Source: an uncultured Bacilli bacterium (GTDB lineage: Bacteria > Bacillota_I > Bacilli_A > RFN20 > CAG-826). Taken from it: DNA of 64,000 nucleotides. The position numbers and the translations under genes were made by a program. Positions 3,695-36,592 of this stretch are shown here, piece after piece; the first letter of the stretch is position 1; every line of letters begins with the position of its first letter. Under the pieces are notes generated by a model that made no database searches, was not told where the DNA came from, and was given only the letters and a program-made list of their open reading frames with translations. The DNA lies in NCBI GenBank assembly GCA_944369075.1, contig CALVXK010000008.1:112-64111 (forward strand). The letters are read 5' to 3'.

Positions 3695-3706
3695 GATAAT
3701 AAAAAA

Positions 3707-3739: not shown

Positions 3740-3764
3740 AAGGATTTACTTAATTTAATCTATA

Positions 3765-4310: not shown

Positions 4311-4425
4311 GTTTATATTCTCCTTAAGTTAAATTAATTATTTAACTATTTTATTTTATCATTATTTGTATCTAATATTTATTAATATGCTTATAAATAA
4401 TAAGTAAGGTATAATTTAACTTAAT

Positions 4426-5115: not shown

Positions 5116-5237
5116 TCTCACGTGAAAATAAATTATTGTTTATAATTGCAATTATCAAAAAAATATTACCACGTGGAAACATTTTGTGCTTTTAATTTTA
5201 ATAACTTCTTAACTTTCATCTCTTTTCAGATTTTTAT

Positions 5238-17208: not shown

Positions 17209-17889
17209 ATGTTAAACATTAAAAGCAAAATTGGAAAAAGTAATTGTGATATCAAGGAAAATGAAGAATTTGTTAATGAAAATAGTCAAGATTTGATCAA
17301 CAATAAAGCTCTTTTAGATTCAAAAAATGAAAAAGAAAACTCTAATGAAGTTAATGAAAATATTGGTCAAAGAATAAAAGAATTAAGAATAAGTAAGGGA
17401 CTATCACAAGAAAAATTAGCTAGTATTTTTAGCGTTTCTCGTCAAGCTGTACAAAAACGGGAAACTAATATCAACGAACCAGACATTAGAACATTAAGAA
17501 AAATTGCAAAATTTTTCAATGTCTCATTAATTTACATTATTGATGGAAAAGAAGAAAACAATAAGCCAGGTTCTTTAGAAAATACTGAACCTAAAAAAGA
17601 TTTAATAGCAACAAAGTCCTTTAAAAACAATGAACTAACTGTGAAGAACATTATCTTAATTATCGTGTTTACATTAAGTGTTATTTTATTTTTTGGTTTA
17701 TTGATTTATGCCTTTTTAAACCCTCTTTATCGATATCAAAGATTTTCTTTCTTCTGGCGGTATGTACCAATTGACGGATTTAATCCATCATATTTCCTTT
17801 TCCAAGTTTTGAACTTAGCAAGTATTGTTGGCGTAGTATTAAGCCTTGTGTTTTTATTTAAAAAGAAAAAGGGGGCAAAAAAGAAATGA
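17209..17889 (+). CDS. Membrane-anchored XRE-family HTH regulator
   Basis: 'IGQRIKELRISKGLSQEKLASIFSVSRQAVQKRE' is an HTH_3 motif. Two C-terminal TM helices follow. An ATGA overlap couples it to the next ORF. Confidence 0.75.
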   Translation: MLNIKSKIGKSNCDIKENEEFVNENSQDLINNKALLDSKNEKENSNEVNENIGQRIKELRISKGLSQEKLASIFSVSRQAVQKRETNINEPDIRTLRKIAKFFNVSLIYIIDGKEENNKPGSLENTEPKKDLIATKSFKNNELTVKNIILIIVFTLSVILFFGLLIYAFLNPLYRYQRFSFFWRYVPIDGFNPSYFLFQVLNLASIVGVVLSLVFLFKKKKGAKKK

Positions 17890-19129: not shown

Positions 19130-20509
19130 ATGGAAAGAAAAATGATTATTGCTAAAAAGTTATTTACTCTTTTAGCAAAAGAGGAACTTAAAGATGGTTT
19201 AGAAGTATTTTTAGAAGGTTGGGTAAGAGGAAATAGAGATAATGGTTCTATTGGTTTTATCGAATTTAATGATGGAACTACATTTAAAAATATTCAACTT
19301 GTTTATACTTCAGAAAATCCTAATTACAATAATATCTCTCATATTAAATATGCTAGCGCTATTAGTGTTAAAGGTAAGATTAAACTTACTCCAACTAATA
19401 AGCAACCTTTTGAAATAAGTGTTGATGAAATATCTCTTTTAGGGGATGTAGCAGATGATTATCCTTTGCAGAAGAAAAGACATTCTTTTGAATTTTTAAG
19501 AGATATTGCTTATCTTAGACCAAGAGCTAATACCTTTAATGCTCTTTTTAGAGTAAGAAATGCTTTAGCTTTTGCAATTCATAAATTCTTCCAAGAAAGA
19601 GGATTCATGTATGTTCATACACCTATTATTACAACTAATGATGCTGAAGGTGCAGGACAATCTTTTAAAGTAGTTGAAGATTTAAAACATCCTAATGATT
19701 TCTTTAATGCTAGTGCATCTTTAACAGTTTCTGGACAACTACATGTTGAACCTTTTGCTTTAGCTTTTAGGGATACATATACTTTTGGTCCAACATTTAG
19801 AGCAGAACACTCTAATACTTCTAGACACGCAAGTGAATTCTGGATGATTGAACCAGAAATTGCTTTTGCCGATTTAGAAGATGATATGGTATTAATTGAA
19901 GAATTTATTAAATATATTATTTCTTATGTTCTAGATAATTGCCCTGATGAAATGAACTTTTTCAATACTATGATTGAAAAAGGTGTTCTAGAAAAAATGA
20001 AACATATTGTTAATTCTAAATTTAAAGTTATGACTTATACAGAAGGTGTAGAACTTCTTAAAAAAGCTGTAGAAGAAGGTCATAAGTTTGAATATAACAA
20101 TATCGAATGGGGTATGGATTTACAAAGTGAACACGAAAGATATTTAACTGAAGTTATTGCTAAAGGACCAATGTTTTTAATTGATTATCCTAAAGAAATT
20201 AAATCTTTCTATATGAAACTAAATCCTGATAATAAAACAGTAGCTGCTTGTGATTTACTTGTTCCTGGAGTAGGAGAAATTTGCGGGGGATCACAAAGAG
20301 AAGAAGATTATGATAAATTAAAAGAAAGAATGATTGCTCAAGGTAATGTTGAAATTCTTGATTGGTATTTAAACCTTAGAAAATATGGTGGATGTATCCA
20401 TTCAGGGTTTGGCTTAGGATTTGATAGACTTTTAATGTATATGACAGGTTTGTCTAATATCCGTGATGTACAACCTTATCCACGTTGTCCAGGATCAATT
20501 AAATATTAA
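19130..20509 (+). CDS. asnS: Asparagine--tRNA ligase
   Basis: Class IIb motifs 'FRAEHSNTSRHASEFWMIEPE' and 'GGSQRE...GFGLGFDRL'. N-terminal OB domain present. Confidence 0.95.
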   Translation: MERKMIIAKKLFTLLAKEELKDGLEVFLEGWVRGNRDNGSIGFIEFNDGTTFKNIQLVYTSENPNYNNISHIKYASAISVKGKIKLTPTNKQPFEISVDEISLLGDVADDYPLQKKRHSFEFLRDIAYLRPRANTFNALFRVRNALAFAIHKFFQERGFMYVHTPIITTNDAEGAGQSFKVVEDLKHPNDFFNASASLTVSGQLHVEPFALAFRDTYTFGPTFRAEHSNTSRHASEFWMIEPEIAFADLEDDMVLIEEFIKYIISYVLDNCPDEMNFFNTMIEKGVLEKMKHIVNSKFKVMTYTEGVELLKKAVEEGHKFEYNNIEWGMDLQSEHERYLTEVIAKGPMFLIDYPKEIKSFYMKLNPDNKTVAACDLLVPGVGEICGGSQREEDYDKLKERMIAQGNVEILDWYLNLRKYGGCIHSGFGLGFDRLLMYMTGLSNIRDVQPYPRCPGSIKY

Positions 20510-20562
20510 TTTACCTTTTTAGTGACAAGTAAGAACAATGTGCTCAGAAAAGTGTTTGACTT

Positions 20563-20586
20563 TTGAATGGCGGGGGGGGGTATCTT
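20563..20586 (+). promoter_or_regulatory. 24-nt G-tract element TTGAAT-GGCGGGGGGGGG-TATCTT (G9 at 20572-20580)
   Basis: 18 of 24 positions are identical to 31024-31047. An upstream TTGACT (20556) lies 19 nt from TATCTT. This is a homopolymer in a low-GC genome. Confidence 0.6.
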
Positions 20587-20607
20587 ATTTTTAGGAGGAT
20601 TAATCAA

Positions 20608-20868
20608 ATGGCAAAATTTTCATATTCAATGACTGATGCAGAAGCAATTTTAGCTTTTAAAAAAGGATTTATGGGAGCTGGTGTTGGCAATATTGCAATT
20701 CTTAAAGACAAGGGAAATGAATTTGTTCTTGGAGCTCCAATGATGACAGTTAATGTAAAATTTAAAGATGGTATTTGTGAAACCAAAGCTTCGTTAATTG
20801 GAAAAACATTGCTTTCAACTGTTAATACAAAAATTGAACTTATTGATGGTTTTAAAAAAATTGGCTAA
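20608..20868 (+). CDS. Small cytoplasmic protein of unknown function (86 aa)
   Basis: AGGAGG lies 9 nt upstream of ATG 20608. The ORF-track start at 20563 would run through the G-tract. A decayed paralog lies at 21465-21689. Confidence 0.6.
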   Translation: MAKFSYSMTDAEAILAFKKGFMGAGVGNIAILKDKGNEFVLGAPMMTVNVKFKDGICETKASLIGKTLLSTVNTKIELIDGFKKIG

Positions 20869-20921
20869 TTATTTGAAGAGTTAATTATTTAAAATAAAAG
20901 GTTCCTTTTTTAGATTTATTT

Positions 20922-20948
20922 AAAGAGCTTTATTTGAGCTCTTTTTTT
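20922..20948 (+). terminator. Intrinsic terminator
   Basis: aaagagc-tttatttg-agctcttt followed by a T-run. Confidence 0.7.
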
Positions 20949-21161
20949 AGGTAAACATGAAATTCGAGTTTTCCTAACTATTTATTGTTGTTGAAAGAAT
21001 TGCAGTTATTTTATCATAAAATTTATTTTACATATTAATGATGGTGGCACATTGAAAAGTCACCATTCAAACTATCTGTTATTTATCAAGGGGTGTTAGA
21101 GAAATTTAAAAGATTAAAGATATCAGTAGTATCTGTTAGCCAGAAAACTAAGGATTTTTTA

Positions 21162-21185
21162 TCTTTTGCAAACGTTTGCAAAAGA
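21162..21185. repeat. Perfect 24-bp palindrome TCTTTTGCAAAC/GTTTGCAAAAGA
   Basis: Read directly from the sequence. It lies in non-coding DNA between the intact and decayed copies of the small gene. Confidence 0.9.
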
Positions 21186-21464
21186 ATAATTTTTTTTTAA
21201 TTCTTCCTTGACCATAATTATATCCAAATTCAAATTTATCAGAATCATCTTTTCTATTTAATAATTTCTATTCTTTTCTCTTCCAATATAAGCCTTCATA
21301 TTAAAACCTTTGGATTTACAAGAGGTCTTATAATAAAACGTATTATAAATAAAGTTAGTTCACTTTCTTAAACAAATATACATAAAAATAAGTTTTTTGC
21401 TATTTTACATTTCAAGATATAATTTTTATAAGATAGAAAGTAAGTCTTCCCCAAAATACTGGCT

Positions 21465-21689
21465 TTGCGTAAAGAAAATTTTGCATCCAAAAAAGAATTA
21501 TGGGAGTTAGAGTTGGTAACATCGCAATTCCTAACGAAAAGTAAAAATGAATTTTTTGAGTTCCTATAATGAGGTTAATTTAAAATTTAAAGATGGTATT
21601 GTGAAACCAAAGCTTCATTAATCAGAAAGGCATTTCTTTCAAAAGTTGATGCAAAAATTGAACTTATTAATGGTTTAAAAAATGATTAA
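21465..21689 (+). pseudogene. Decayed duplicate of the 20608..20868 gene
   Basis: 'MGVRVGNIAIPNEK..NEF....VNLKFKDGI.KPK' parallels 'MGAGVGNIAILKDKGNEF...VNVKFKDGICETK'. Several stops and frameshifts are present. A terminator-like sequence is also duplicated (about 21735-21775). Confidence 0.7.
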
Positions 21690-21775
21690 TTACGTGGGAG
21701 TAACTTTTTGAAACAGAAGTTTTTGTTTCTTTAATAAACAATTTAAAGATCTTTATTGAAGATTTTTGTTTAGTT

Positions 21776-23184
21776 TTATTCATCAAAGTAATTTGAATCA
21801 ATAAATGGAACCATATATGGTGGAATCTTAATTGTTTTATTTTCGTGGTCGATACTAAATTCTTTTGGATGAATTATAATAGAATAATAAACTCTATTTT
21901 TAAATTTTTCTTTAAATTTATCTAGAGAGGTAGTAGTGTAATTTGCGCTAGATTTAACTTCAATTGGTATTATTTTCAAGTTTGTTTTCACTTCGTTTGA
22001 TATTAAAAAGTCAATTTCTATATCATTTCTATGTTTTTCATTACTATAGTGTGTATAAAAAAATAATTTTTTACTCATAGAAGTTAAAGCTTGAGCAACA
22101 TAATTTTCAAGTAACATCCCTTTATTAATTGATAATTTACCACTAATAATTGCATTATATAAATTATCAGTTTTTATTTGGTTTTCATTAAAAGCCTGGC
22201 TGAATAGCAAACCAGTATCACCCAAATAGCATTTAACTTCGTTATCATTTAAAGTTAGCGAAAATCCAACGTTAGGGTCGTTTGTTTTATAGCATAGATT
22301 ACAAATAATAGAGTCTCCTAGCCAATATAATGATTCATCATAGTTACAAAATTTACCATTTTGGTCAAAAGTATTAAGTTTTAGTTTCTTTTCGTGAGTT
22401 GAAAGATTACTAGGAATATGCGAAAAGATAGTCTCAACTTTAGAACTATATTTCTGTCTAGATTTTTTGATGTCATCTTCGTAAAGAGATAAAATATCTC
22501 TTTTTGCTTTATCGCTTTTGCAAAAACTTAGATTATTTTCTAAATATTCTGTTACGCTTTGTGGCATCCCACCAACTAAGAGATATTCATAAAAAATACG
22601 CATGGCTTTATTGTGGTAAAATCTATCTAACTTTATTTTCTTTTCAAAACAATCTTTAATATGCGAAATAAGTATTTTTTCGTTTTTTGCGAGCATAAAT
22701 TCTTCAAAATTAAGAGGATACATTTTTATCTTTTCTTCTTCACTTGGAATTGTGATTGTAGAGACATTTTCTTTTATTGAAATTAAAGAGCCAGTTTCAA
22801 TCAAATCGTATCTTCCACCTTGAACTAGATATTTAATTGCTTCTCTAGCTCTAGGAAATGCTTGGATTTCGTGAATAATTAAAGTATGTCTTGGAAATAA
22901 TTCAGTATTTTTTCTAAACCTATATCTTTATATAAAAAATCTAAATTTCCAAGATTATTTTGAAAACTATTTTTTAGTTTATTACTAACAACATTGAAAT
23001 CCAGCAAGATATATGATTTATAGTTTTCTTTAGCGAATTTTTTAACAATTGTTGTTTTTCCAAAACGTCTGGCTCCTTCGATAAGCAATGCTGTTTTCCC
23101 GTTGGGTGAATTCTTCCAATCTTTTAGTTTTTGATAAATTTCTCTTTTTAATTCCATAAATATCTCATATAACTTTTTGTCCAA
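21776..23184 (-). pseudogene. AAA+ ATPase, AAA_14/DUF4143 family (paralog 2), frameshifted
   Basis: The N-terminal piece (22879..23184) carries Walker A 'GARRFGKTT'. Walker B 'LIIHEIQAFPRAREAIKYLV' reads in another frame and continues into 21776..22804. The frames overlap at the A6 run (22908-22913 on +). Confidence 0.8.
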
Positions 23185-23186
23185 AG

Positions 23187-23230
23187 CGCAAAGTAGATTT
23201 ATGCGAAAATCCAGGCTATACGCAAAGTAA
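23187..23230. repeat. CGCAAAGTA words, 34 bp apart, with a related TGCGAAAAT between them
   Basis: Copies at 23187 and 23221. On the gene's sense strand they read TACTTTGCG, upstream of the frameshifted ATPase. Compare AACTTTTTGCAA upstream of paralog 3. Confidence 0.5.
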
Positions 23231-23351
23231 TTTATAGTATCAGTTAATTAAAAGACAAGGCTTAATAGTAAATTTTATATTTTTAAATTGTTCCATTTTA
23301 TGTCCTTAAGTAATTTTTATAATTAATATAAATATTTGGAGGCTAGATTAA

Positions 23352-25952
23352 ATGGATAAAAATTTTGTAAATTATCAAGAAAAAATAGAGAAAATAGCAG
23401 GTTTATGTAATGTCGACTTATCAATAACTAACATTAATGAAGAAGCAATATTATCATACATATTAAACGATAAAACATTTGATTTATATGGAATTTATAA
23501 TCATAATTTAAGCCGATTATATAAATTAATTAAGGAGTTTAAACCAAAAACAAAAGATGAATTTATTTCTATTTTAGCTATTAATGAATTAACTTTTTTT
23601 GGGAATAAAGATTCAAGTTACTTAATTGAAGTCTTTAATAATTACGGTTATCTTACTTTAAGTAAAGAAAATTTAGTTAATCTTTTAATTGGTTTCGAAA
23701 TAGATAAAGATGATGCTATGATGATTATTAATCAAGTACCACATCTATTTAAAAAAGATATATTTATATTAGAATCATATGTTGAAGATAAATTTCTTAT
23801 CAATCTAATTAAAAATTTAGAAGAAATAAAAAGTGAAGAGTATTTGTTAAATCTATATAAAGATATTATTACTTTAATGTATTTTAAGATGAACTATAGA
23901 AATGTTTTTAATAAAGTTATTTCTAAAGATTTAAATAGAGTTGAAATAAATTCACATTTTTATCATGAAGTAAGATCTTATGAAACACTTGAAAAATGTA
24001 TAGAATCAATAAAAGAAAGAGATAATATTGATGTTCTTGTTATTTGCAATGATTCGTATTTATATAATCTAGATATTTTAAGATGTATAAAAGCAAGATA
24101 CGGACTAAAAAAACTTATTCAAGGCATAGAACTTAATGTTAGAAGTGATAACACTCAAATTTATAAAGTTTCTTTTCTTCCTAGAACTAAATTAGGAGCA
24201 AGAAACCTCTATGAACTTATAAGTAAAGCTAAAATAATTAACGATAAGTTTTATGTAACTTTTGATCAAATTATTGAGTATCGAAAAGATATATTTATTG
24301 GTTCACCTTGTTTTGAAAGCGAACTATTTTATTTAGCTTTAAATAAAGATTATGAAACATTAAAAGAAAGAATTAATTTTTATGATTATATCGAAATTGA
24401 ACCTCTTTCAAACTATTCCTTATTAAATCTTCCTAAATTAGATTTAAATGAATTAAAAGAAATAGTAAATATAGTAATAAAAATAGGAGAAGAATCTAAA
24501 AAGATAATTGTTGGAACATCAGATCATTATTTTAAACTTGATGAGAGTAATATAGTTAAAGAAGTATTATCTAATTGTTTTAACGTTAACATTAAAGAAG
24601 ACAATGAATATAAAACGAGATACTTAAATACTAAAGAATTATGTGATTCTCTTTCTATATTTATTGAAGATAAAGAAAAACTAGATGAGTATATTTTAAT
24701 TAATCCTAATAAGTTAGTTTCTTTCATTGATGATAATAGTTTTAACTTTTTTCCTAGACCATATTCTTTAATTAAAATAAATAATTCTAAAGAGAGATTA
24801 AAAGAGATATGTGATTTAAAGATTAAAGAAAAATATAATCTAGAATTATATGAAAAGATAAAAGAAATAGTATTCAAAGAGATAGATACTTTAAATAATA
24901 AATATGATTTATGTTCTACATTACTTTATTATTATTCCTTCTTCAATAAATTAAGTGAAGAAGGAATAATATATCTAACTAATCAAAGTAATATTCTTTT
25001 TACTTATTATTTGCTTGGTATAAGTAATATTGATCCTTTAACTATATTTTCTTTAGAAGATAATGATTTATTTACTTACTATAATTTAAATCATTTAGAT
25101 GGAAAGTATAACATTGATATTAAAATAAGTGTAAATTCTAAATTTATCGATAAAGCATATAAAGTCTTAAAAGAAACATTTAACGATAATAAGATTATAA
25201 GATTAAAAGAAGATTATAATGATTTAAATTTATCTAAAATTAATGAATTCGTAAATTCGTTTATTATTGTTCCAAAAGATGTCAATATTTATGAGTTTAC
25301 TCCTTTAATAAATGAAGTTACTTGTTTTACTAATTGTTATTTAAAGTGGATTTTTCCTATAATTTCTTTTAAAACTTCTAAAATAATGGATGAAGCTAGT
25401 GATTTATTAAATAAGAATAACTTAATTCTTTCTAGCATTAATTTAAATGATAAAAAAGTTCTCTCTTTCTTTAATAGTGAAGATTTTTTAAATAATAAAA
25501 TAAAAGATAAGAAACTAAGAAGCTTAAATCTAGTAAATAATTTAGAGATAAAAGAAATATTAAAGTTAGTTAAAATAAATAGTTTCTCTGCTTTAGTAAG
25601 AGTTTATGGAATATTATTTAACTCTTCTTCTAGTAAGTATATAGATATATTAAAAAAGCGTTATTTAAATAATGGAGTTTTAAATATAAAGGATATTATT
25701 TCATCTAAAGAAGATTTATTTATTTTCTTGCTTAAGTTTATTAAGGACGCTGATTTGGCTAAAAAATTTACATTCGACATATACACAGGAAGTGGTAAAG
25801 AAGATAAAGGGATTTTACGTAAGCTTAATGTTCCTAAAGACTCTATTGAATATTTTATTAATATAGAATACCTTCTTGGAAAGTCAACTATCGTTCAGAA
25901 CTTAATAATTGTATTTATTTTTGTTTATTGTTCGTTTTTATGCCAACAATAG
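23352..25952 (+). CDS. PolC/DnaE (C-family polymerase alpha)-derived protein with degenerate catalytic motifs and a duplicated fingers module (predicted pseudo-polymerase)
   Basis: By-eye matches to E. coli DnaE. PHP start: 'RVEINSHFYHEVRSYE' vs 'FVHLRVHSDYS'. Palm: 'LTNQSNILFTYYLLGISNIDPL' vs '[24 protein letters not shown]', and 'GKYNIDIKIS' vs 'SMPDFDVDFC'. The fingers module occurs twice: 'FKPKTKDEFISILAI...MYFKMNYRNVF' at the N-terminus and 'VKINSFSALVRVYGI...' at the C-terminus. SD GGAGG upstream. Confidence 0.6.
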   Translation: MDKNFVNYQEKIEKIAGLCNVDLSITNINEEAILSYILNDKTFDLYGIYNHNLSRLYKLIKEFKPKTKDEFISILAINELTFFGNKDSSYLIEVFNNYGYLTLSKENLVNLLIGFEIDKDDAMMIINQVPHLFKKDIFILESYVEDKFLINLIKNLEEIKSEEYLLNLYKDIITLMYFKMNYRNVFNKVISKDLNRVEINSHFYHEVRSYETLEKCIESIKERDNIDVLVICNDSYLYNLDILRCIKARYGLKKLIQGIELNVRSDNTQIYKVSFLPRTKLGARNLYELISKAKIINDKFYVTFDQIIEYRKDIFIGSPCFESELFYLALNKDYETLKERINFYDYIEIEPLSNYSLLNLPKLDLNELKEIVNIVIKIGEESKKIIVGTSDHYFKLDESNIVKEVLSNCFNVNIKEDNEYKTRYLNTKELCDSLSIFIEDKEKLDEYILINPNKLVSFIDDNSFNFFPRPYSLIKINNSKERLKEICDLKIKEKYNLELYEKIKEIVFKEIDTLNNKYDLCSTLLYYYSFFNKLSEEGIIYLTNQSNILFTYYLLGISNIDPLTIFSLEDNDLFTYYNLNHLDGKYNIDIKISVNSKFIDKAYKVLKETFNDNKIIRLKEDYNDLNLSKINEFVNSFIIVPKDVNIYEFTPLINEVTCFTNCYLKWIFPIISFKTSKIMDEASDLLNKNNLILSSINLNDKKVLSFFNSEDFLNNKIKDKKLRSLNLVNNLEIKEILKLVKINSFSALVRVYGILFNSSSSKYIDILKKRYLNNGVLNIKDIISSKEDLFIFLLKFIKDADLAKKFTFDIYTGSGKEDKGILRKLNVPKDSIEYFINIEYLLGKSTIVQNLIIVFIFVYCSFLCQQ

Positions 25953-25983
25953 TACTTCATACTTTTAGTATTAAGGAGAATTT

Positions 25984-26496
25984 ATGGAAATTAGAAGTGA
26001 TAACTTTATAGATTATTATTCAATCTATGCTAAAGATATTAGGTATGACTTATATGATAATTTAGGTTTTACTGGAGATACAATTAATGGACTCCCTATT
26101 TTTAAAAGAATAGAACTAGGAAATAACATTGATTTTGTTAATAAAGGAACATTAGAACGATTAGAAATATTAACTGGAAATATTTATTCTTCTGAATGTA
26201 TAGCAATGAATTATTGAAATCCTTTATTTTGGTTTGGTTTAGATAAAGAAAATGATCGAATAATGGCTTTAAATTCAGGAATCTCTAGAGATGAAGATAT
26301 GTGGATTATTTATAAAAATGGAATTGTAAATTGTTTAACTGGAGAATATGTTGAAGGAGAATTTGTAGCACAAAAAAGAGAATCTTTTTCTTGTGTTATA
26401 AATAGAGTTCCTAGAAGCTATATTTCATCAACTACTAATTTTTGTAACAATGTTTCTATCTTGCTAGGTTTAATTATTGATTTATTATCTATATAA
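25984..26496 (+). pseudogene. 170-codon reading frame of unknown function interrupted by one in-frame TGA (26215-26217)
   Basis: ORFs 25984..26217 and 26263..26496 are in the same frame. There is an SD before 25984 and none before 26263. Reading TGA as Trp gives 'MNYWNPLFWFG'. Confidence 0.5.
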
Positions 26497-26505
26497 GGAG
26501 AAGTT

Positions 26506-27483
26506 ATGTTTACTAAGAAAGATTATGATAATTTATTAAAAGAAATTTATATTAAAGAAGAACTCGAAAAAAGAAATAAAGATGTTTCAAATGAATTTAG
26601 AAGTGGTAGATACTCTAATTATTTTAAAGATGAATTTTTAGATAAAAATGGTAGATTTTATATAGATTTAAATAACTACCAAAATGCTTATTCTTCTTAT
26701 TTAGAAGGAGGGGGAGAAGAATTAATAAGTAAAGGAGTAAGACCACCTAAACTTCTTTCAATTGGATCAAGTTCTAATTTTTGTTTCTATTCTCTAAGAA
26801 ACAAAAATTATTTAGATAAGTTAGGTTTTAATTTCTTTTTAAAAGGTGGTGATAAGTTACTTAATAACTCAAATACTTATGAAAAAGCATTAAAAATAGA
26901 AGAAGTAAATAAAAATAGTTATATTGATGCATTTATGGAAGGAGAAAAAGAATTATATTTCTTTGAATGTAAATGTCATGAGTATTTTGATAAGCATGAA
27001 TTTGACTTAAGTTTAACATATGGAAAGAAAGAGTTAATAAAAGAATTAAAAATAGATCAATGTAGTAGTGATCCAAAAGGTATAAATTTTAATATTAATC
27101 CATACACTTATTTTGAATTAGATAAACTTTATAAAGATAAAGGAAGTAATGTTGAAATTACAACTTACTTTTATATTAAACAACTTTTAACTCATTTAAT
27201 GGCAATTACTGATTATAAATCATCTAAAAAGAAGAATTTAATCTATTTTTACTCTTTTCCACCATTAAAATATATATTAAATAACTTAGATCTTAAATCT
27301 CATTTAGTTAATGTAGTTAAAGAGACTTATCATGTATTTAACTTTCTGGAAACTAAGATAGATTATTTAAAAAAGAATAATATTGAATTAAGTTTATTTA
27401 TTAAAATAGATGGTAGAAGTGAAGAAAGTGCATGTTCTAATAATGTTATTAATGGATATAGATTCTTAGAACTAATGAAGTAA
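26506..27483 (+). CDS. PD-(D/E)xK nuclease-like protein
   Basis: 'SIGSSSNFCFYSL', then 'SYIDAFMEGEKELYFFECKCHE' (D...ExK). SD AAGGAG upstream. By-eye call only. Confidence 0.45.
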   Translation: MFTKKDYDNLLKEIYIKEELEKRNKDVSNEFRSGRYSNYFKDEFLDKNGRFYIDLNNYQNAYSSYLEGGGEELISKGVRPPKLLSIGSSSNFCFYSLRNKNYLDKLGFNFFLKGGDKLLNNSNTYEKALKIEEVNKNSYIDAFMEGEKELYFFECKCHEYFDKHEFDLSLTYGKKELIKELKIDQCSSDPKGINFNINPYTYFELDKLYKDKGSNVEITTYFYIKQLLTHLMAITDYKSSKKKNLIYFYSFPPLKYILNNLDLKSHLVNVVKETYHVFNFLETKIDYLKKNNIELSLFIKIDGRSEESACSNNVINGYRFLELMK

Positions 27484-27484
27484 T

Positions 27485-28402
27485 ATGGCCAATAAATTAA
27501 GTAATAAATATGATGAAAGAATAAAGGAATTAACTAAATTAACTAATATTAATTTAAGTGATATTAAATTCTTTGATAATGAGATTATATCTTACATTAT
27601 CAAAGAATTTGATTATGCTTATTATCTTCCTTCATTACAAGGATGTTACTTTAATAACTTTAATGATTTATATAATCTAGTTAATTTAGTTAAACCTAAA
27701 AATATTAATGAATTTATATTAATTTTAAATTTAGTAAATTCTAAGTTTCATTCTAAGAAATTAATATTAAAAGATATTAAAGAATATGGGATAAATAGCA
27801 TTATTACTAGTAAACCTAAATTGCTTAGTTATTTAATTAAATCTAATAATGATTTAAATTATGATGAAGCTATAGAGTTAATAAATGATTTAGATAAATT
27901 AAAATTATCTATTTATGATTTTAATTTATCTAAATATCTTAAAGAAGAGATATTAAATATAAAGAATCTATCTACATTAAGTGATTCTGCTAAATTATTT
28001 AAAAACATATATTATCTAGCTCATTTTAAAATACATTATGAAGGTATATTCTTTAATACTTTAATAAAAGAAGAAGGTAGTTTTGTAGGTCCATTCTTTT
28101 ATATAGATTCTAAAGTTTATGCATATAAAGAAAAAGTAGAATCGTTTAATGTTAAATTACTATATTTTGATTCTAATATGGGACATATGTTATTTTTTAA
28201 TACTTTAAATAAATATGGAGAATATAGTTATTATCCTAGAGGGAGAGTATTATTTGATAATCTAAATAAGATTTACCTTATTTATATCGATAAATCTTTA
28301 AATAAAGCTAAGATAAAAGAAGAAATAATTAATGAATATAACTTAAAGAATAAGAAAGTTAAATTTTGTTATGATGAACATTATGTTACTCTTGATTATT
28401 AA
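27485..28402 (+). CDS. Protein with an N-terminal PolC/DnaE fingers-module (paralogous to the N-terminus of the 866-aa protein) and an unknown C-terminal domain
   Basis: 'VKPKNINEFILILNL' and 'IYYLAHFKIHYEGIFF' parallel 'FKPKTKDEFISILAI' and 'ITLMYFKMNYRNVF' (DnaE 'LQPDCFEDMIALVAL', 'LWLKAHYPAEF'). The start is 1 nt after the upstream stop. Confidence 0.55.
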   Translation: MANKLSNKYDERIKELTKLTNINLSDIKFFDNEIISYIIKEFDYAYYLPSLQGCYFNNFNDLYNLVNLVKPKNINEFILILNLVNSKFHSKKLILKDIKEYGINSIITSKPKLLSYLIKSNNDLNYDEAIELINDLDKLKLSIYDFNLSKYLKEEILNIKNLSTLSDSAKLFKNIYYLAHFKIHYEGIFFNTLIKEEGSFVGPFFYIDSKVYAYKEKVESFNVKLLYFDSNMGHMLFFNTLNKYGEYSYYPRGRVLFDNLNKIYLIYIDKSLNKAKIKEEIINEYNLKNKKVKFCYDEHYVTLDY

Positions 28403-29285
28403 GTTTATCATTAACTAAATTTACTATTAAATTGGAGTATTTATAAACTATTTCGTTATTTCTAAGTGCTACATCTTTTAGATTATTAATTTGTTCTTTA
28501 GTTAATTCAATAATCTTATATCTGTCATTATCTTCATTAAATGTAAAACATCTAAATTTATATTTTTCGATTAATTCATAAGCATAACGATGACCAAATT
28601 TATATTGATCTAGCGGAACAATTACTCCTAATGCTAAAGAATCTATTTTGTAGTCTTTAAAATATTTTCTAGATTCTTCCAAATAATATCCAGAATTAAA
28701 GATATCTAACCAATGCGCATAAGTTAATATTTCACTTACTGCTCTAAATAAATTTTCTTTAGATGAAGGTATTTTATACTCATTTAATATTAATTGATTA
28801 ATGTCTCTATCAAGAGTAATTAAATCAACATTAGATTTACGGCGATATCTAGAACTAATAGGAGCTTCAAAATATAAAGGTTTAATTGATTTATTTTTAA
28901 AACTAAAAAGTAAGTTCTTTTCATTTAATTCTTTATTATTTACTAAATATATACATTGTTGTGGTTCATTCTTTGGATTTACCTCATATTTGTTACTATG
29001 AGTGTTTGGAATACAATTTTCTAATGTTATGGGTAAAGGCTTAATTTCATCAAATGAATGTTTATTGTTTAGGAAAAATGTTTGGTAAACATATTCTGAA
29101 AAGAGATTTTGTAGGATTGAATAATTGGCTGGCTTGTGTTTTGAAGGATCAACTTGATTTTTACTTAATAAATCATAAATTTCTTCAATTGTCGCATTTT
29201 TAACTGAGTTTAATTCAGATCCTTTGTTAAAAATAGCATCTATTCGGTTTATTATATTTTTTTCGTAATCAATCTTTTTAGCCAT
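28386..29285 (-). CDS. PD-(D/E)xK nuclease-like protein
   Basis: 'SNVDLITLDRDINQLILNEYKIPSS...AVSEILTYA' fits the D...ExK...Q..Y pattern. The 3' end overlaps the convergent ORF by 17 nt. Confidence 0.45.
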   Translation of the reverse strand: MAKKIDYEKNIINRIDAIFNKGSELNSVKNATIEEIYDLLSKNQVDPSKHKPANYSILQNLFSEYVYQTFFLNNKHSFDEIKPLPITLENCIPNTHSNKYEVNPKNEPQQCIYLVNNKELNEKNLLFSFKNKSIKPLYFEAPISSRYRRKSNVDLITLDRDINQLILNEYKIPSSKENLFRAVSEILTYAHWLDIFNSGYYLEESRKYFKDYKIDSLALGVIVPLDQYKFGHRYAYELIEKYKFRCFTFNEDNDRYKIIELTKEQINNLKDVALRNNEIVYKYSNLIVNLVNDKLNNQE

Positions 29286-29362
29286 AATAGTATTAACGAT
29301 TTAAAATTTATGTTTATTTTAACATTAAAACTTATAAAATAAAAGAAAGGAATAAAAGTTAA

Positions 29363-30268
29363 GTGTCAAAGTTATCTCAAGAATTAGAAATACTCTATTA
29401 TTTAAACAAAAACTATGATTCTAGAAGATTTATTGGTCTAGATGAAATTTTAGATTATCTAGATTTAGATAAGAAATGTGCTAGACAAGTAAGAAGATAT
29501 ATCGATGATTTAAATCTAGCTAAATTTTATATTGATACTAAAAGAGGACTTAATGGAGGATATCGTTTATTCGATAAATTAGAACCATCAAGTTTACTTG
29601 TTCCTAATATTGCTCTAGCATTAGTATTATCTTCTAAACATAATAAAAAGTTAGGGGAATATTTAAAAGATATACCTAATATCATTAAATATAATATTAT
29701 TGAAGGTGATAACGAAATAACTAGTAATACCTTAAACAAATTAATTGAAGTCGTTGCTTCAATTAATGATAAAGTAGGTATATCTTTTAAATATAAAGAT
29801 ATAGAAGATAATATAGATATTAATCCATATAAAGTTTTATATACTAATCATACTTATTATTTAATTGGATTAGATTTAAAAGATAATAAAGTTAAAGTAT
29901 ATGATGTAAATTATATAGATAATATTAAGTATATAGAAAAGTTTAATCTAGATAATATCTTATTAAATAAAATAGAAGATAGACTAAATAATTATGGTAT
30001 TAAGTTTTATCTTGATCAAGATAAAACTTATCTATTAAGAGTTAAATGTAAAAATAAGAATGTATTAGATAAATTTATTAAGTATTATGAAAATAAAGGT
30101 AAAGTAGATGGACTTATATTTGAAGTAAAAGGAAATAGTGAAAACGAATTATTTTATCCTTTATTAAGAATATCATCTAAAGATTATGTTATTTTAAATA
30201 ATAAGTTTAAAAAAGCTTTTACTTCTTATTTAGAAGCTTATTTAAATAATATAAAGAAAAATAAGTAA
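29363..30268 (+). CDS. HTH-WYL domain transcriptional regulator (BrxR/CapW-like architecture)
   Basis: N-terminal wHTH 'LDEILDYLDLDKKCARQVRRYIDDL'. WYL-type core 'INPYKVLYTNHTYYLIGLDLKDNKVKVYDVNYIDNIKYIEKF'. GTG start with an SD. Divergent from 28386..29285. Confidence 0.75.
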   Translation: MSKLSQELEILYYLNKNYDSRRFIGLDEILDYLDLDKKCARQVRRYIDDLNLAKFYIDTKRGLNGGYRLFDKLEPSSLLVPNIALALVLSSKHNKKLGEYLKDIPNIIKYNIIEGDNEITSNTLNKLIEVVASINDKVGISFKYKDIEDNIDINPYKVLYTNHTYYLIGLDLKDNKVKVYDVNYIDNIKYIEKFNLDNILLNKIEDRLNNYGIKFYLDQDKTYLLRVKCKNKNVLDKFIKYYENKGKVDGLIFEVKGNSENELFYPLLRISSKDYVILNNKFKKAFTSYLEAYLNNIKKNK

Positions 30269-31100: not shown

Positions 31101-31739
31101 ATGCTTAAAAGAAAATTATTAATGACAATTTTACCTGTATTATCAGCAGCAGTTATTGCAGGAGCTGGATTTAGTGCATGGGTATTTGATCATACAAATT
31201 CCGATGATGCTAATATGACTATTAATACTAACGTTGAGGATGCTTTTGATTACAGTATTAGTGTTTTAAAAACTACTGAGCCTGATAAGTTAAGTTTAGA
31301 TCAAGACACACCTGATTCTGTAGCAAGTGGAATTAGTTTTGTCAATGGCACAAAAGATACAGATTTAGTCTTACAAGTCGAACAATCCGGTGGTACCGCT
31401 AACTTTACATCATTAGATTTTGAAATAACAATTACATTAGATGATAGCTTAAATACTTATTTAGATTTTAATACATCTAGCATAGGCTCTATTTACAAAG
31501 ACAATGGCGAATGGGCTTCACAAGGTGAAACGACAGGTAAAACAATTACATTAACATTATCAGGTGTAACTTTTTCTGGTAATCAATCTTATAAATTTAC
31601 TTTAAATAATGGTAATCATAATTATTTACTTGATTACGCTGATGGTCAAAAACCTCAAAGATATACTGATTGGCAAGCTATGAACACTGCTTTAGCAAAT
31701 TCTTTAATGACTATTGATATCTCTGTTACTGCTAATTAA
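31101..31739 (+). CDS. Secreted TasA/camelysin-like candidate fibre subunit with SipW-cognate-like signal peptide
   Basis: '...VIAGAGFSAWVFDHTNS' resembles the TasA-type 'GGGTWAAFND' signal end. 212 aa. SD GGGAG upstream. Paralogous N-terminus to 35704..36378. Confidence 0.6.
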   Translation: MLKRKLLMTILPVLSAAVIAGAGFSAWVFDHTNSDDANMTINTNVEDAFDYSISVLKTTEPDKLSLDQDTPDSVASGISFVNGTKDTDLVLQVEQSGGTANFTSLDFEITITLDDSLNTYLDFNTSSIGSIYKDNGEWASQGETTGKTITLTLSGVTFSGNQSYKFTLNNGNHNYLLDYADGQKPQRYTDWQAMNTALANSLMTIDISVTAN

Positions 31740-31778
31740 TAGATTCTCCTCATCTATTCTTATTCTTGCTTTGGTCTA

Positions 31779-31818
31779 ATTAATATGGATAAAATTCTAC
31801 CCCTTTATCCATATTAAT
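31779..31818 (+). promoter_or_regulatory. Intercistronic 15-bp perfect hairpin (attenuator/mRNA-stabiliser candidate)
   Basis: attaatatggataaa-N10-tttatccatattaat between the first and second operon genes. No U-run follows. Confidence 0.6.
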
Positions 31819-31863
31819 AGATATATATTATAAATAAATATTATTTAATAGGTTTTTTGTTAT

Positions 31864-34746
31864 ATGTTTAAAAGTAATAAACGAAGAATATTATCTATAT
31901 TTATTATGGTACTAGCTTTAATAGTATTAGTACCTTCTTTTGCGTTATCATATTTTTATTTTAATACACCTTCTATTAATGACCCTACCAATATCGATAA
32001 TGGTAGTGTCAATGGTAATAATGGTATAGATGATATAAAAGAAAACTATACCGGTAATAAAGATGATAGTTCAAAAGAATATACTATCTATTTCTTCCCA
32101 TCAGTACTTTATACTCAATACTATTTGAATCAATTAACTAATTCAACAACATTAGGAATTACACCATTAGATGGAGTAAATCCTGAAGATTGGTTTGGAT
32201 ATAATGAATTAACATATAATGAAGATACAGATGGTTTCACTTCTAATATTTACTTCAACGGAACAAATTATTTATACAATAACGTTGCTACTGATAGAAT
32301 GGGTGATTTAGGTTATATAAATTTTATAACTGACACCTACGATAAACATAGAGATAGTGAAATAGTAGAAGGAACTCATAATGGTGAGACAAGAAAAGTT
32401 ATAGAAGCTGAACATATAGATAAAAACCCAGATAAATTTAGCATTAAAAGTCAAGATTATAATCTATTGTCTCAAACATATTTGCCTTTTAGCGAGGGCG
32501 ATTTCGAAAGCGGAATAGCTAGCAATGGTATGGATGATTATAGGTATTCTTGGGACGCTTATAATAGAGATTTTGGAGATCCTTTAGATGTAGTAGAAAA
32601 ACAGTATTTTGACTCTTCTTTTTTATTTGAAAATGGTGGAGACTATGAAAACATGCCTAAATTGGATGGGCAGTTTAATTATGACAATATATATAAAATG
32701 GATAGATTTGGTTTTTGGCCAAATAACAGAGTCAATATTGAACCTAACAAAGACTTTAAATTGATTAAGCATTATGAAAATGTCAAATACAGATATGAAG
32801 GAATCATTTTTCATCCTACTTACGAAGGACCTGTTACAGTAGAGATTACTCAACATTTTTCTGTAAATCAAAACCAAGTAGCTGATTTAAATTTAGGGAG
32901 ATATTTACCTTATAAATTAAAGGTTGACGACTATTTGCCTATTGATTGGTATGAAAATTTAATAGATTTTCCTGAAAGCGATATGGGAGATATCAATAAA
33001 TATGGAAGTGATCACAATAATGCTCCTAATCCTTTTTATAATTATTCTTTTGCTGGATGGGGATATTTCAATGAAAAAAACGAATTCTCTGTTGCTTTAA
33101 ATGCTGGCGATAATGTTATCGAGAAAGTATTTACTTCTGAAAACATTAGCAACACTTTTGATATTATGTCCAATTTAGAACAATATGCGGATGATAATGG
33201 TGTGATTAGATTATTTCCAATATTTTCTAATGGTAAAAAATATTCTACTAATCCAGGTAGCACAGCTAATGATCAATATGCATTTAGATTAAATTTTAAC
33301 GATAAGCCTACAAGCGAAAGTGTAAGTTATGAGTACAATATTGATAATTATTTTTTACGAAACGGTACATCTCAAAATTCGAGTATAAGTTTAACTAGAA
33401 TTGGGAATTTTAGATATGATGTCAGTTATAATGGTACTAGCAAATACATTAATGTTGAGGTAACGACAGCTAATAACTATATTCTCTCAGATGACACTTG
33501 GGAAATAAGTATGTATGGTCGAAATTTCGAAAAAGTTTTGCGAACTAACTATGGACTTTATAACATATATATTTTTGCTTATAACGGGCAAGACGCTAAT
33601 GTATTAAACGAAGCGAATATAGAACGAACTATTAGAGATTTTTATCCAACGAAAAATCTAGGCAATATTCATTATAATATTGATGAAGTTAACACATATG
33701 GAGACTCTCTTAAATATATAATTGGTTATGAGAGAATAAGTGATGTAAAGTTTATAGAAGGATTAAACGAGGGTGCTCCCTTTGATAGCCAAATTTCAGA
33801 GGACAAATACAATAATTCCCAATCTATGCTTAAGCAAAGTAATAAAGTTTTCCTTGCTAATGATGTTATCGATAATGATTCATGTTTTACTATTGGAGAA
33901 GGTATTGAAGCAGGACATAAGGTAATTTCTGACTTTAATTTTTCAAAAATTACTTACGATCTATATAGTACCCCAATTAATAATGATAATATCTATTTAA
34001 TTAAAAACATTGATTTTACAAACTATAGTAGTTTAGATGAATCGATTTTCCAAATTAAATTAAATATAAATTCAAATACTTCTGAACAATTTGCATTTAG
34101 TGATCCTTATGCCGATGGAAGTAGTAATACGGTAATTAAATTTAAAAACGAAAAATTTGATGCCCTTATTTATAATCCTAGTGGTGATTTAACTGATGAA
34201 AATGTGTTTATACCAGCTTCTTATTATTTTGAACAGGTAACAGATAATTTAGGTGGATATGGTTATAAACCTAGACACACTGTCTATCTAGGAATGTATG
34301 ATTTTATATTATATTTTGGTGGATCTAACTATGAATTATATTGTTATAGACATTCGAATATGACTGTTTCAATTTATAGTAAAGATCAACAAGATAATGA
34401 TAGAGATGGGTATGTTGATCCTATTCAAAATGAATTGATTTGGTCAAGAAAAACATTTATTGGTTCTTATTTAGAAGATAGTAATAGCGGTAATGTAGGT
34501 TCTATCGTTGGACAAACATTAAAAGATACTATTAATGGTTACCTCATTAATAATGGTGCAGATAAATCAAAACCTTATTACATCAGGGACCATGTAACTG
34601 GGTTAGATTTATTTAGATTTACATTTAATAATGAAACAAATTCATGGGATGTTCAAAAGTTATTAAATGATTTTAGAATTCGTAAAAATTATGTTTTCTA
34701 TATTACTAATGAAGAACCATTAGTAAATCAAAGTAGTGGTAATTAG
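31864..34746 (+). CDS. Large (960 aa) extracytoplasmic protein with N-terminal SipW-like signal/anchor, function unknown
   Basis: 'LIVLVPSFALSYFYFNTPS' N-terminus. Asn/Tyr/Asp-rich, with no recognisable catalytic motif. Internal antisense ORFs are judged spurious. The SD is weak. Confidence 0.6.
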   Translation: MFKSNKRRILSIFIMVLALIVLVPSFALSYFYFNTPSINDPTNIDNGSVNGNNGIDDIKENYTGNKDDSSKEYTIYFFPSVLYTQYYLNQLTNSTTLGITPLDGVNPEDWFGYNELTYNEDTDGFTSNIYFNGTNYLYNNVATDRMGDLGYINFITDTYDKHRDSEIVEGTHNGETRKVIEAEHIDKNPDKFSIKSQDYNLLSQTYLPFSEGDFESGIASNGMDDYRYSWDAYNRDFGDPLDVVEKQYFDSSFLFENGGDYENMPKLDGQFNYDNIYKMDRFGFWPNNRVNIEPNKDFKLIKHYENVKYRYEGIIFHPTYEGPVTVEITQHFSVNQNQVADLNLGRYLPYKLKVDDYLPIDWYENLIDFPESDMGDINKYGSDHNNAPNPFYNYSFAGWGYFNEKNEFSVALNAGDNVIEKVFTSENISNTFDIMSNLEQYADDNGVIRLFPIFSNGKKYSTNPGSTANDQYAFRLNFNDKPTSESVSYEYNIDNYFLRNGTSQNSSISLTRIGNFRYDVSYNGTSKYINVEVTTANNYILSDDTWEISMYGRNFEKVLRTNYGLYNIYIFAYNGQDANVLNEANIERTIRDFYPTKNLGNIHYNIDEVNTYGDSLKYIIGYERISDVKFIEGLNEGAPFDSQISEDKYNNSQSMLKQSNKVFLANDVIDNDSCFTIGEGIEAGHKVISDFNFSKITYDLYSTPINNDNIYLIKNIDFTNYSSLDESIFQIKLNINSNTSEQFAFSDPYADGSSNTVIKFKNEKFDALIYNPSGDLTDENVFIPASYYFEQVTDNLGGYGYKPRHTVYLGMYDFILYFGGSNYELYCYRHSNMTVSIYSKDQQDNDRDGYVDPIQNELIWSRKTFIGSYLEDSNSGNVGSIVGQTLKDTINGYLINNGADKSKPYYIRDHVTGLDLFRFTFNNETNSWDVQKLLNDFRIRKNYVFYITNEEPLVNQSSGN

Positions 34747-34769: not shown

Positions 34770-35711
34770 ATGGGCGGACAAGATAGATTAGGTATTGTTG
34801 CATTAGTTGTATCAATATTTGTTATTCTGGGTTTAGTAATTGTTTTTTGTTTCTTATTCTTTCTTTATTCTTTTTATAAGAAAAAACAAATTAAATATGG
34901 CTTTGAAGATAAAGAATTAAATGATGAAATTACTTCGACTTTATATAAAACTAATAAGAAAAATTTAAGTAGGAATGAAAATCTAATTACATATAAAGAT
35001 GTAATTGCTAGAGAAAAAAGTATTACTTCAAAATTACATATCGTCATGGATGTAGTTAGTGGGGTAATTATTGCTTTTTTACTTGCTATATTTATTACAG
35101 GTTTAACTTATAGAATTAATAACGATAACTTATTTATTGGCAATACGACTTATATGACAATTCTTACTTCTTCAATGGAAGAAAAGAATGAAGATAATGA
35201 TTATTTACTTACATATGATTTAAATGATCAAATAACTCAATATTCTTTAATTGGTATAGATAAAATTAATAGTGAAGATGACATTGAGTTATACGATATT
35301 TTAGCTTATAAACATGACGATATCGTTATCGTTCATAGAGTTGTAGAAATAAAAGAAAATGATAAAGGTGAAACAATTTATCGTTTACAAGGAGATTCGA
35401 ATCCATCTTCTTTAAGTTACGAAAAAGAATTAACATTTGATAATTTTATTGGTAAATATAATGGATATCAAAATTATGGTTTAGGCGTAACTTTAACTTA
35501 CATTAAATCAAATATTGGTATCATTGCAGTTTTAGGTGCTGCTATTTTCTTATTTTTAGCAACGTATGCTGAAGAAATGATTAATAATGAATATAAAACT
35601 AGACTCTTATTACTTGCAGATGATAATACATTAAATAAAGATTTAAAGTTAATTATTAAACTTAAAGAATCTCATATTTTAGAGAGTAAGGAAGAAAATA
35701 TAAATGAATAA
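34770..35711 (+). CDS. sipW: SipW-type (S26B, ER/archaeal-type) signal peptidase I with extended N- and C-termini
   Basis: 'TSSMEE' (Ser box, cf. SGSMEP), 'IVIVHRVVEI' (His box, cf. THRI) and 'LQGDSNP' (cf. KGDNN). TM helices lie before and after the catalytic domain. SD GGAGG upstream. Confidence 0.75.
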   Translation: MGGQDRLGIVALVVSIFVILGLVIVFCFLFFLYSFYKKKQIKYGFEDKELNDEITSTLYKTNKKNLSRNENLITYKDVIAREKSITSKLHIVMDVVSGVIIAFLLAIFITGLTYRINNDNLFIGNTTYMTILTSSMEEKNEDNDYLLTYDLNDQITQYSLIGIDKINSEDDIELYDILAYKHDDIVIVHRVVEIKENDKGETIYRLQGDSNPSSLSYEKELTFDNFIGKYNGYQNYGLGVTLTYIKSNIGIIAVLGAAIFLFLATYAEEMINNEYKTRLLLLADDNTLNKDLKLIIKLKESHILESKEENINE

Positions 35712-36544: not shown

Positions 36545-36592
36545 CGATTTATTTAATCTGTTTTTCTGTTAAAATATAAGAGGGGTGTGCTA

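Follow-up and report, generated by a model that had tools for sequence, protein, structure and literature searches.

The DNA analysed here, called the window throughout, is a stretch of 64,000 nucleotides (nt) from an uncultured Bacilli bacterium (positions 112 to 64,111 of contig CALVXK010000008.1, assembly GCA_944369075.1). It contains an uninterrupted open reading frame (ORF) for a PolC-like protein of 866 amino acids (aa), named iPolC, in which two of the three catalytic aspartates of the C-family DNA polymerases are lost, and which lies in a cassette of accessory genes together with a WYL-domain regulator. The ORF, its start signal and the domains of its product are as follows (HhH, helix-hairpin-helix; pLDDT, predicted local distance difference test).

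23352..25952, plus strand: 866-aa catalytically dead PolC-like protein ('iPolC'), ATG to TAG, recognised by PolC homology, structural model and loss of catalytic residues
23338..23342, plus strand: Shine-Dalgarno sequence GGAGG, 9 nt before the ATG of the 866-aa gene, read from the sequence
23382..23918, plus strand: extra N-terminal copy of the PolC fingers, aa 11-189, aligned to PolC 1093-1286 (HHalign probability 96.5%, E 7.7e-10)
23928..24701, plus strand: PHP domain without the DnaQ exonuclease insertion, aa ~193-450 (Pfam PHP E 6e-6; four of nine metal ligands; pLDDT 80-95)
24702..25421, plus strand: palm and shortened thumb, aa ~451-690 (MAFFT and HHalign; strand 670-675 and helix 677-688 in the model)
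25422..25949, plus strand: C-terminal, native fingers segment, aa ~691-866 (second phmmer stretch; DNA_pol3_finger E 0.011; HHalign to PolC 1289)

A phmmer search of the PDB matched the 866-aa protein to PolC structures (9qpc, E 5.6e-20; 3f2b, E 4e-18), with a second stretch in the fingers that aligned query residues 733-852 to residues 749-867 of the 3f2b chain, and HHalign against a profile of 20 canonical PolCs returned a probability of 99.9% (E 3e-34). The protein scored below the curated thresholds of the NCBIfam PolC equivalog NF001688 (108 bits, cut-off 873) and of TIGR01405 (100 bits, threshold 1043), and its Pfam matches were a marginal PHP and a sub-threshold DNA_pol3_finger. An AlphaFold model, built from a 66-sequence alignment that included PolC homologues, reached a pLDDT of mostly 75-95 over residues 193-866; the N-terminal part (pLDDT 30-57) was unreliable, and the model of a 305-aa neighbour was used in its place. 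The best Foldseek match of the 866-aa model was PolC of G. kaustophilus (3f2b; E 3.8e-28, template modelling (TM) score 0.63, 775 columns), and the top 19 matches were all PolC or DnaE (E 4e-28 to 1e-17, TM 0.55-0.63). These results identify the 866-aa product as a genuine homologue of the C-family polymerases, of the PolC and not the DnaE type. The initial annotation, made by eye from the sequence, had named the family correctly, as the highly significant phmmer, HHalign and Foldseek results confirm, but had aligned the protein to DnaE.

In an alignment of the 866-aa protein with the 20 canonical PolCs and 51 short relatives (MAFFT, with HHalign as a second check), the PolC-like part begins at the PHP motif RVEINSH (R196; RVELHxH in PolC), and the columns of the exonuclease insertion are empty. 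The nine PHP ligand positions read N-H-R-D-E-K-C-D-Y, compared with H-H-D-H-E-H-C-D/N-H in PolC, with four metal ligands retained (H202, E260, C320 and D391). In the palm, GSRGS has become LTNQS, PDIDLNF has become YNIDIKI and QHPGG has become FVNS, and the strand of the third Asp, KLDILG, now reads PIISFK, which in the model forms a strand (670-675) followed by a helix, as in PolC. The columns of the catalytic Asp triad, DDD in 20 of 20 canonical PolCs, hold D589, K591 and S672 (or I671), leaving one of the three carboxylates and not a complete active site. The fingers read VKINSFSALVRVYG, compared with TRPSTFDELVRISG, and the VRKGKG and FPKAHA motifs, through which the PolC fingers contact dNTP and DNA, have degenerated in both fingers copies. 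The last residue of the protein corresponds to PolC position ~1289 of 1430, so that the distal fingers and the HhH duplex-binding and clamp-binding parts are absent; Pfam, NCBIfam and the alignment also revealed no N-terminal domain, exonuclease (PF00929), oligonucleotide-binding (OB) or HhH domain, in agreement with the initial annotation, which had found no exonuclease, OB or HhH/beta-binding region. Each motif listed there sits where it had been placed in the alignment to PolCs. Its conclusion that catalytic acidic residues are lost at the DxD holds as well, but in a different register: by both MAFFT and HHalign, D589 and K591, and not N587 and D589, occupy the first and second Asp columns.

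The N-terminal module, aligned by HHalign with a small profile of the N-terminal region, corresponds to the same PolC segment (1093-1286) as the C-terminal end of the protein, and both copies stop at the same PolC position (~1286-1289); the protein does end where its fingers module ends, as had been noticed by eye. BLASTP links the module (32% identity, E 6e-12) to the N-terminus of the 305-aa neighbour, which models at a pLDDT of 90.8 and whose sole significant PDB matches are PolC structures (~200 columns). BLASTP of the module against its own C-terminal counterpart and against PolC gave nothing significant, and its homology to fingers was revealed only by profile and structure comparison. 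The layout suggested initially (module, PHP, palm/thumb, module) is confirmed by HHalign and by the Foldseek match of the neighbour, but the additional module, taken at first for a copy of the protein's own fingers, is a paralogue of the module of the 305-aa neighbour and not a recent copy of its own C-terminus.

Searches for relatives covered 5.8 billion clusters and 1.84 billion representatives by full HMMER (total scope ~15 billion proteins). They gave 553 HMMER hits, many of them ~700-950 aa long, starting at the PHP motif and without an exonuclease (Exo-less). The 866-aa protein scored 262 bits on a hidden Markov model (HMM) of this short family compared with 154 bits on an HMM of canonical PolC, its best database-wide match is an 834-aa protein (P0031), and its identity to other PolC-like proteins is no more than 20-28%. 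In a tree, reconstructed by neighbour joining of BLOSUM distances only, its branch is very long and arises close to the base of the divergent forms. These sequence comparisons place the 866-aa protein with the short, Exo-less PolC-like proteins, which probably form a radiation of their own. A recent duplicate or decayed copy of the host replicative PolC was ruled out by the two HMM scores and the very long branch; the initial description of a polymerase relic was right about the lost catalytic residues, but the protein is not a decayed host replicase.

Loss of the active site is not confined to the window: among ~45 complete short PolC-like forms sampled, ~19 (~40%) have broken catalytic triads, e.g. 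P0038 (YSE), P0048 (DNN), P0053 (DNG), P0069 (SEH) and P0162 (HEH). The dead relative P0038 adjoins HNH and WYL/WCX genes, P0048, from an isolate genome, is surrounded by WYL, Metallophos, Tpt1 and DUF4143 genes, P0053 adjoins CBASS, and P0136 is found with UvrD, GmrSD and DpnII restriction-modification genes, while short relatives with an intact active site sit with UvrD helicase, Metallophos and AAA proteins. Exo-less PolC variants were described from Clostridia and Negativicutes by Timinskas et al. (2014), who dropped sequences without an intact active site and called the Asp triad absolutely conserved (PMC3919608), and a 2026 survey of bacterial polymerases does not list an inactive C-family group (PMC12926913). 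In the literature searched, we found no paper joining PolC with WYL and none describing an inactive C-family group.

Close relatives of the 866-aa protein form a single 90% cluster of 866-aa proteins, the next best match being 28% identical, and among GTDB genomes only the same lineage of metagenome-assembled genomes holds the gene. No broken or more distant alleles were found in JGI metagenomes, and tblastn searches of phage and plasmid collections brought up no close relative, only remote PolC genes, often located on chromids or on fragments without annotation. Six distinct nucleotide alleles, from one uncultured Bacilli lineage and >30 contigs, differ at 178 variable sites with no stop codon and no indel, stops in orthologues being what the initial annotation had named as the mark of neutral decay; in addition, the ORF is intact wherever it is covered in 24 contigs reached through the 305-aa gene. 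Since 3.4-6.4% of the possible mutations create stops, ~6-12 stops would be expected among the 178 changes under neutrality. The reading frame itself is protected, because none of these was observed and because the adjacent 513-nt gene was broken over the same history. The 20-28% identity to other PolC-like proteins, combined with a confidently predicted PolC fold, indicates a long evolution as coding sequence. The G+C content of the window is 21-30%, and because ~9% (~1/11) of random codons are stops at ~22% G+C (by arithmetic), an open frame of 866 codons cannot be a product of chance, in line with the initial argument. Promoter and terminator scans were uninformative in this AT-rich window (fewer promoter-like matches than in shuffled sequence, and no terminators).

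The 866-aa gene is accompanied by the following genes, for which omega denotes dN/dS between alleles.

21776..23184, minus strand: AAA_14/DUF4143 ATPase, PADLOC candidate PDC-S01; split into ORFs of 342 and 101 aa in the window, uninterrupted (461 aa) in other strains
25984..26496, plus strand: 170-codon ORF (g170), interrupted by an in-frame TGA, a pseudogene here by comparison of alleles
26506..27483, plus strand: 325-aa PD-(D/E)xK-like protein (g325); homologues of ~306 aa at 33-38% identity; omega 0.12-0.18
27485..28402, plus strand: 305-aa protein (g305), PolC fingers module (aa 1-195) and new C-terminal domain; omega 0.11-0.14
28386..29285, minus strand: 299-aa protein; homologues adjoin C-terminal-domain genes in loci L070 and L081 (tblastn); omega 0.4-1.3
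29363..30268, plus strand: WYL-domain transcription regulator, 301 aa; PADLOC WYL models E 3e-10; omega 0.07-0.08

The order is the same in every strain: asparaginyl-tRNA synthetase (AsnRS), a small ORF, DUF4143/AAA_14, the 866-aa gene, the 170-codon ORF, the 325-aa, 305-aa and (on the minus strand) 299-aa genes, and WYL. The alleles of the g170 ORF stop at different places: the window has TGA as codon 78 and CGA as codon 92, and four other alleles have Leu at codon 78 and their stop at codon 92; the ORF is also frameshifted in L007, and L011 has an assembly gap there. With two independent stops and a frameshift among them, all the alleles read (window, L001, L007, L008, L010 and L011) are broken, which suggests a pseudogene disrupted more than once, the alternative being recoding. 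The ORF is weakly homologous to a 149-aa protein at the same position of another cassette (L021; BLASTP E 4e-4). One gene caller ignored the stop and gave g170 as a protein of 170 aa. Genetic code 4 (TGA = Trp) had been suspected, as only 2 of 51 long ORFs end in TGA and two in-frame 77-codon ORFs lie across the TGA within 25984..26496, but was ruled out: the long genes are without TGA, Trp is encoded by TGG (93 TGG), and the small gene has a stop site that differs between alleles as well as a frameshift. A second DUF4143 gene (36587..37936) is 34% identical to the one flanking the cassette.

The 325-aa protein aligns over a D...ECK core (E 1e-3) with the 306-aa protein of L021, which has weak PDDEXK_13 and PDDEXK_11 matches. 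The new C-terminal domain of the 305-aa protein comprises ~105 aa (aa 200-305; 28085..28399), occurs also in L024 and L035-L084, and is characterised by the motifs VGPFFYID, SHFxYF, GDYGNYPRGRV, YIDK and DxHYTHD; no Pfam, NCBIfam or PDB match to it was found. It exists alone (homologues of ~203 aa), fused to PolC fingers, or fused to a degenerate mini-palm (PF07733) plus fingers (homologues of ~455 aa). The domain is often located in defence islands, e.g. in L024 beside TIR, HepT/MNT and AbiEii genes. A PDB sequence search with the 325-, 305- and 299-aa neighbours retrieved nothing, the 299-aa protein has no family match in NCBIfam, PHROGs, PADLOC or PDB, and PHROGs and PADLOC (2.0) gave no match for the 866-, 325-, 305- and 299-aa proteins, the matches in the window being the flanking DUF4143 and WYL.

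A scan of JGI metagenomes with the 305-aa family recovered 58 loci, 23 of which are well flanked; these 23 C-terminal-domain loci include PolC-derived ORFs in 13 cases, a PD-(D/E)xK-like gene in 10 and WYL in 7. Homologous WYL, PD-(D/E)xK-like and fingers-plus-C-terminal-domain genes co-occur on unrelated contigs, in L021-L023, L027, L028, L031-L038 and L041. The cassette of L021-L023 consists of the following genes.

WYL regulator: 38% identical over its full length to the window WYL; heads the cassette
306-aa protein: PD-(D/E)xK-like, a distant homologue of the window 325-aa protein
149-aa protein: weak homologue of the window 170-codon ORF
459-aa protein: homologue of the window 305-aa protein
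124-aa protein: no window counterpart found
100-aa protein: no window counterpart found
202-aa protein: carries HHH_6; not in the window

A serine recombinase adjoins the cassette of the 459-aa homologue, and serine recombinase and TnpV genes flank some cassettes; the L037 cassette comes after genes for an AlwI-type restriction enzyme and GmrSD, and its last gene encodes a 496-aa dead palm-plus-fingers protein. The PolC-like ORFs of L037 (8833..10323) and L035 (from ~8600) open with a short N-terminal segment, e.g. '..ITLSGIQTEFKVGFALAEEIY..', in which a resemblance to the FtsK-gamma-like winged-helix DNA-binding domain was seen by eye only. In L031, the homologous cassette (209..5423) adjoins glutamyl-tRNA synthetase, and that of the window (19130..30268) adjoins asparaginyl-tRNA synthetase, a similarity that could be fortuitous or reflect a common kind of insertion site.

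Between the window and L001 or L007, the island (window ~21.7-30.3 kb) is 96-99% identical in nucleotide sequence, and the flanking AsnRS and TsaD genes (15.0-20.5 kb) are 92-93% identical. Synonymous divergence (dS) is ~0.05 in the island compared with 0.35 in the flanks, which suggests a recent exchange of the island between lineages about as distant as separate species. The region between TsaD and AsnRS also varies between strains (window 16.0-19.0 kb compared with L001 3.2-6.2 kb): in the window it holds a 156-aa ORF, an HTH repressor-like gene (17209..17889) and a 367-aa ORF, and in L001-L006 instead an extra DUF4143 gene and duplicated TsaD fragments. Downstream of WYL, two ORFs of 212 and 960 aa (31101..34746) have no family match; this fast-evolving part of the island shows ~73% nucleotide identity and many indels relative to L001, in which the gene encodes 903 aa, and is followed by a SipW-like signal peptidase gene (34770..35711).

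Compared with PolC of G. kaustophilus (3f2b), the 866-aa protein has the same PHP-palm-fingers fold and domain order, and PolC-specific motifs are still recognisable (FYDYIEIEP, GLxNLYxLIS, IIVPxxxxIYxFTP), but it is without the N-terminal and OB domains, the DnaQ insertion and the HhH and clamp-binding parts, has a shortened thumb and possesses extra N-terminal fingers. With the published Exo-less variants and the short PolC-like proteins it shares a PHP domain lacking the exonuclease insertion, the absence of an N-terminal or OB part and, with the short proteins, a location in accessory islands, commonly near a WYL regulator. An intact active site was required of the published variants (PMC3919608), whereas the 866-aa protein and ~40% of the short relatives sampled are without one; the 866-aa protein is moreover the most divergent of the short forms (best identity 28%), the only one with a duplicate N-terminal module, and lacks the HHH_6 that some of the others keep. 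ImuB/iPolY of the Y family and inactivated PolB of family B offer a parallel, in that a polymerase fold outlives its catalytic carboxylates within a multi-gene accessory cassette and is presumed to have a structural, non-catalytic role (PMC12926913). The 866-aa protein differs from ImuB/iPolY in belonging to the C family and in having no detected RecA-NT or clamp-binding motif, and its partners are WYL, a PD-(D/E)xK-like protein and the protein with the new C-terminal domain, not ImuA, DnaE2 and RecA. As in the WYL-regulated defence operons of the BrxR and CapW type, a WYL+HTH regulator adjoins a strain-variable multi-gene cassette; the island holds PDC-S01, and homologous cassettes lie beside restriction-modification, GmrSD and CBASS genes, but the genes next to WYL here match no known defence system (PADLOC).

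The explanation that we consider most probable, with moderate confidence, is that the 866-aa product is a selected, fast-evolving, non-catalytic subunit of a recurring accessory cassette, descended from a short Exo-less PolC-like polymerase. The protein has kept the PHP-palm-fingers scaffold while losing two of the three carboxylates, the GSRGS and QHPGG nucleotide-binding loops, most of the PHP ligands and the clamp and duplex parts, and has gained an N-terminal fingers module of the kind found in the 305-aa neighbour. It is presumably unable to polymerise DNA, may serve as a scaffold or as a subunit that binds DNA or protein, and probably pairs with the 305-aa protein through their common fingers module. 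The WYL regulator, judging from its adjacency, may control the cassette, and the PD-(D/E)xK-like protein is a likely enzymatic partner or effector. The cassette (WYL, PD-(D/E)xK-like, small protein, fingers plus new C-terminal domain, and 866-aa protein) appears to be horizontally exchanged, and versions of it recur in Firmicutes of gut, rumen and fermenters, commonly in defence or mobile islands and often with other dead PolC fragments. A role in conflict with phages or mobile elements is our leading guess, as the neighbourhoods favour it over damage tolerance or element replication.

The main rival to a selected non-catalytic subunit is a neutral relic, i.e. a dead copy of a mobile-element polymerase that has not yet acquired a stop or frameshift and whose product is functionless. 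Several observations weigh on its side and against ours: in the window strain, selection on the 866-aa gene is weak and the cassette is partly decayed. The variable sites are almost evenly distributed over the codon positions (55/51/72), and the synonymous fraction (29.6%) is, by a crude count, close to the neutral value at kappa 4 (27.6%). Maximum-likelihood (ML) estimates of omega (0.37-0.56) indicate weak constraint and are 3-7 times those of WYL, g305 and g325 (AsnRS, 0.02); other estimates range from 0.49-0.72 (NG86) and ~0.9 (kappa-adjusted count) to 0.8-1.8 (LWL85). The amino-acid constraint on the protein is weak, and the initial view of a maintained, non-decaying gene, although supported by the absence of stops and indels in the six alleles, was stronger than omega values of 0.37-0.56 beside 0.07-0.18 in the neighbours allow. 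Furthermore, both g170 and DUF4143 are broken in the window, which may mean that the cassette is decaying in this strain; all the catalytic motifs have degenerated; the gene is confined to one lineage, with the range from 28% to 90% identity empty of relatives; the alleles were found through intact proteins, a bias against broken copies; the gene order of the window differs from the common one, in which WYL comes first; and PADLOC and PHROG models matched none of the PolC-like members (the 866-aa protein and eight relatives). We nevertheless regard a neutral relic as unlikely, given that 2.6 kb in six alleles remained free of stops and indels while the adjacent gene of 513 nt was hit by two independent stops and one frameshift in the same history, that ML omega is below 1 in five of five comparisons, and that a confident PolC fold persists at 20-28% identity, behind a strong Shine-Dalgarno sequence and with dead PolC-like proteins recurring in homologous cassettes.

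A more specific version of the non-catalytic-subunit explanation, which is possible but which we put forward only tentatively, makes the protein a sensor or decoy of a new system against phages or mobile elements: the scaffold would mimic the host replicase or bind replication intermediates, and its engagement by a phage factor would license the PD-(D/E)xK-like effector, with WYL as the switch. Relatives or cassettes beside CBASS, GmrSD, AlwI and DpnII restriction-modification, HNH, TIR, HepT/MNT and AbiEii genes are consistent with this, as are a WYL regulator of the type that heads many defence operons, the flanking PDC-S01 ATPase and the exchange of the island between lineages, and the raised omega is compatible with an arms race; but the variable residues are evenly spread without a hypervariable patch, no PADLOC model is matched, the effector role of the 325-aa protein is a prediction, and the argument is one of guilt by association. 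With similar reserve, dead PolC-derived proteins could be the signature of an unrecognised multi-gene system of mobile and defence islands in Firmicutes, in which the replicase scaffold was exapted as a sensor or decoy for the replication of invading DNA. It might use PolC in several forms (whole short proteins, palm-plus-fingers fragments, fingers with the YPRGRV domain), a WYL switch and a PD-(D/E)xK-like effector, and the 866-aa protein with its two fingers modules would perhaps be one such sensor. An inactive scaffold of a complex for DNA-damage tolerance or element replication might also be envisaged, comparable to ImuB, a dead Y-family polymerase, in the ImuA-ImuB-DnaE2 mutasome; the active polymerase would be encoded elsewhere, and WYL would be an activator responsive to single-stranded DNA (ssDNA), which is the signal for PafBC- and DriD-type WYL regulators. 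We consider this rather improbable: inactive homologues are established scaffolds in the Y family (PMC12926913), intact short relatives sit with UvrD, Metallophos and AAA, and serine recombinase and TnpV flank some cassettes, but an active polymerase, a helicase and a RecA-like partner are all missing from the window cassette, neither a clamp-binding motif nor an HhH was detected in the 866-aa protein, and restriction and abortive-infection neighbours suit defence better. That the protein is still an enzyme, either a polymerase or nucleotidyltransferase with a non-canonical site or a PHP phosphoesterase, seems very improbable. In favour of this, D589 and the PHP ligands H202, E260, C320 and D391 are kept, and confidence in the modelled palm and PHP folds is high; against it, Lys has taken the place of the second Asp, acidic residues are absent from the strand of the third, and the GSRGS and QHPGG loops and the RKGKG and PKAH motifs of the fingers are lost, in a family in which all 20 canonical PolCs have DDD and the catalytic Asp are reported to be absolutely conserved in active enzymes (PMC3919608).

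The 866-aa protein is neither an ordinary polymerase nor an ordinary pseudogene; it seems to be an inactivated polymerase homologue, in a family from which none appears to have been described, within a candidate new gene system. C-family polymerases are usually treated as uniformly active, and this locus gives entry to a sizeable, overlooked set of inactivated PolC-like proteins, among which sub-domains of PolC are found split, duplicated and fused to a new domain. The theme of a dead polymerase as scaffold, known from the Y and B families, would thereby reach the family of the bacterial replicases. The stand-alone fingers module and other natural dissections of PolC could help to map what the fingers sub-domain binds, and the cassette provides a concrete, testable candidate for the biology of defence and mobile elements in gut Firmicutes.

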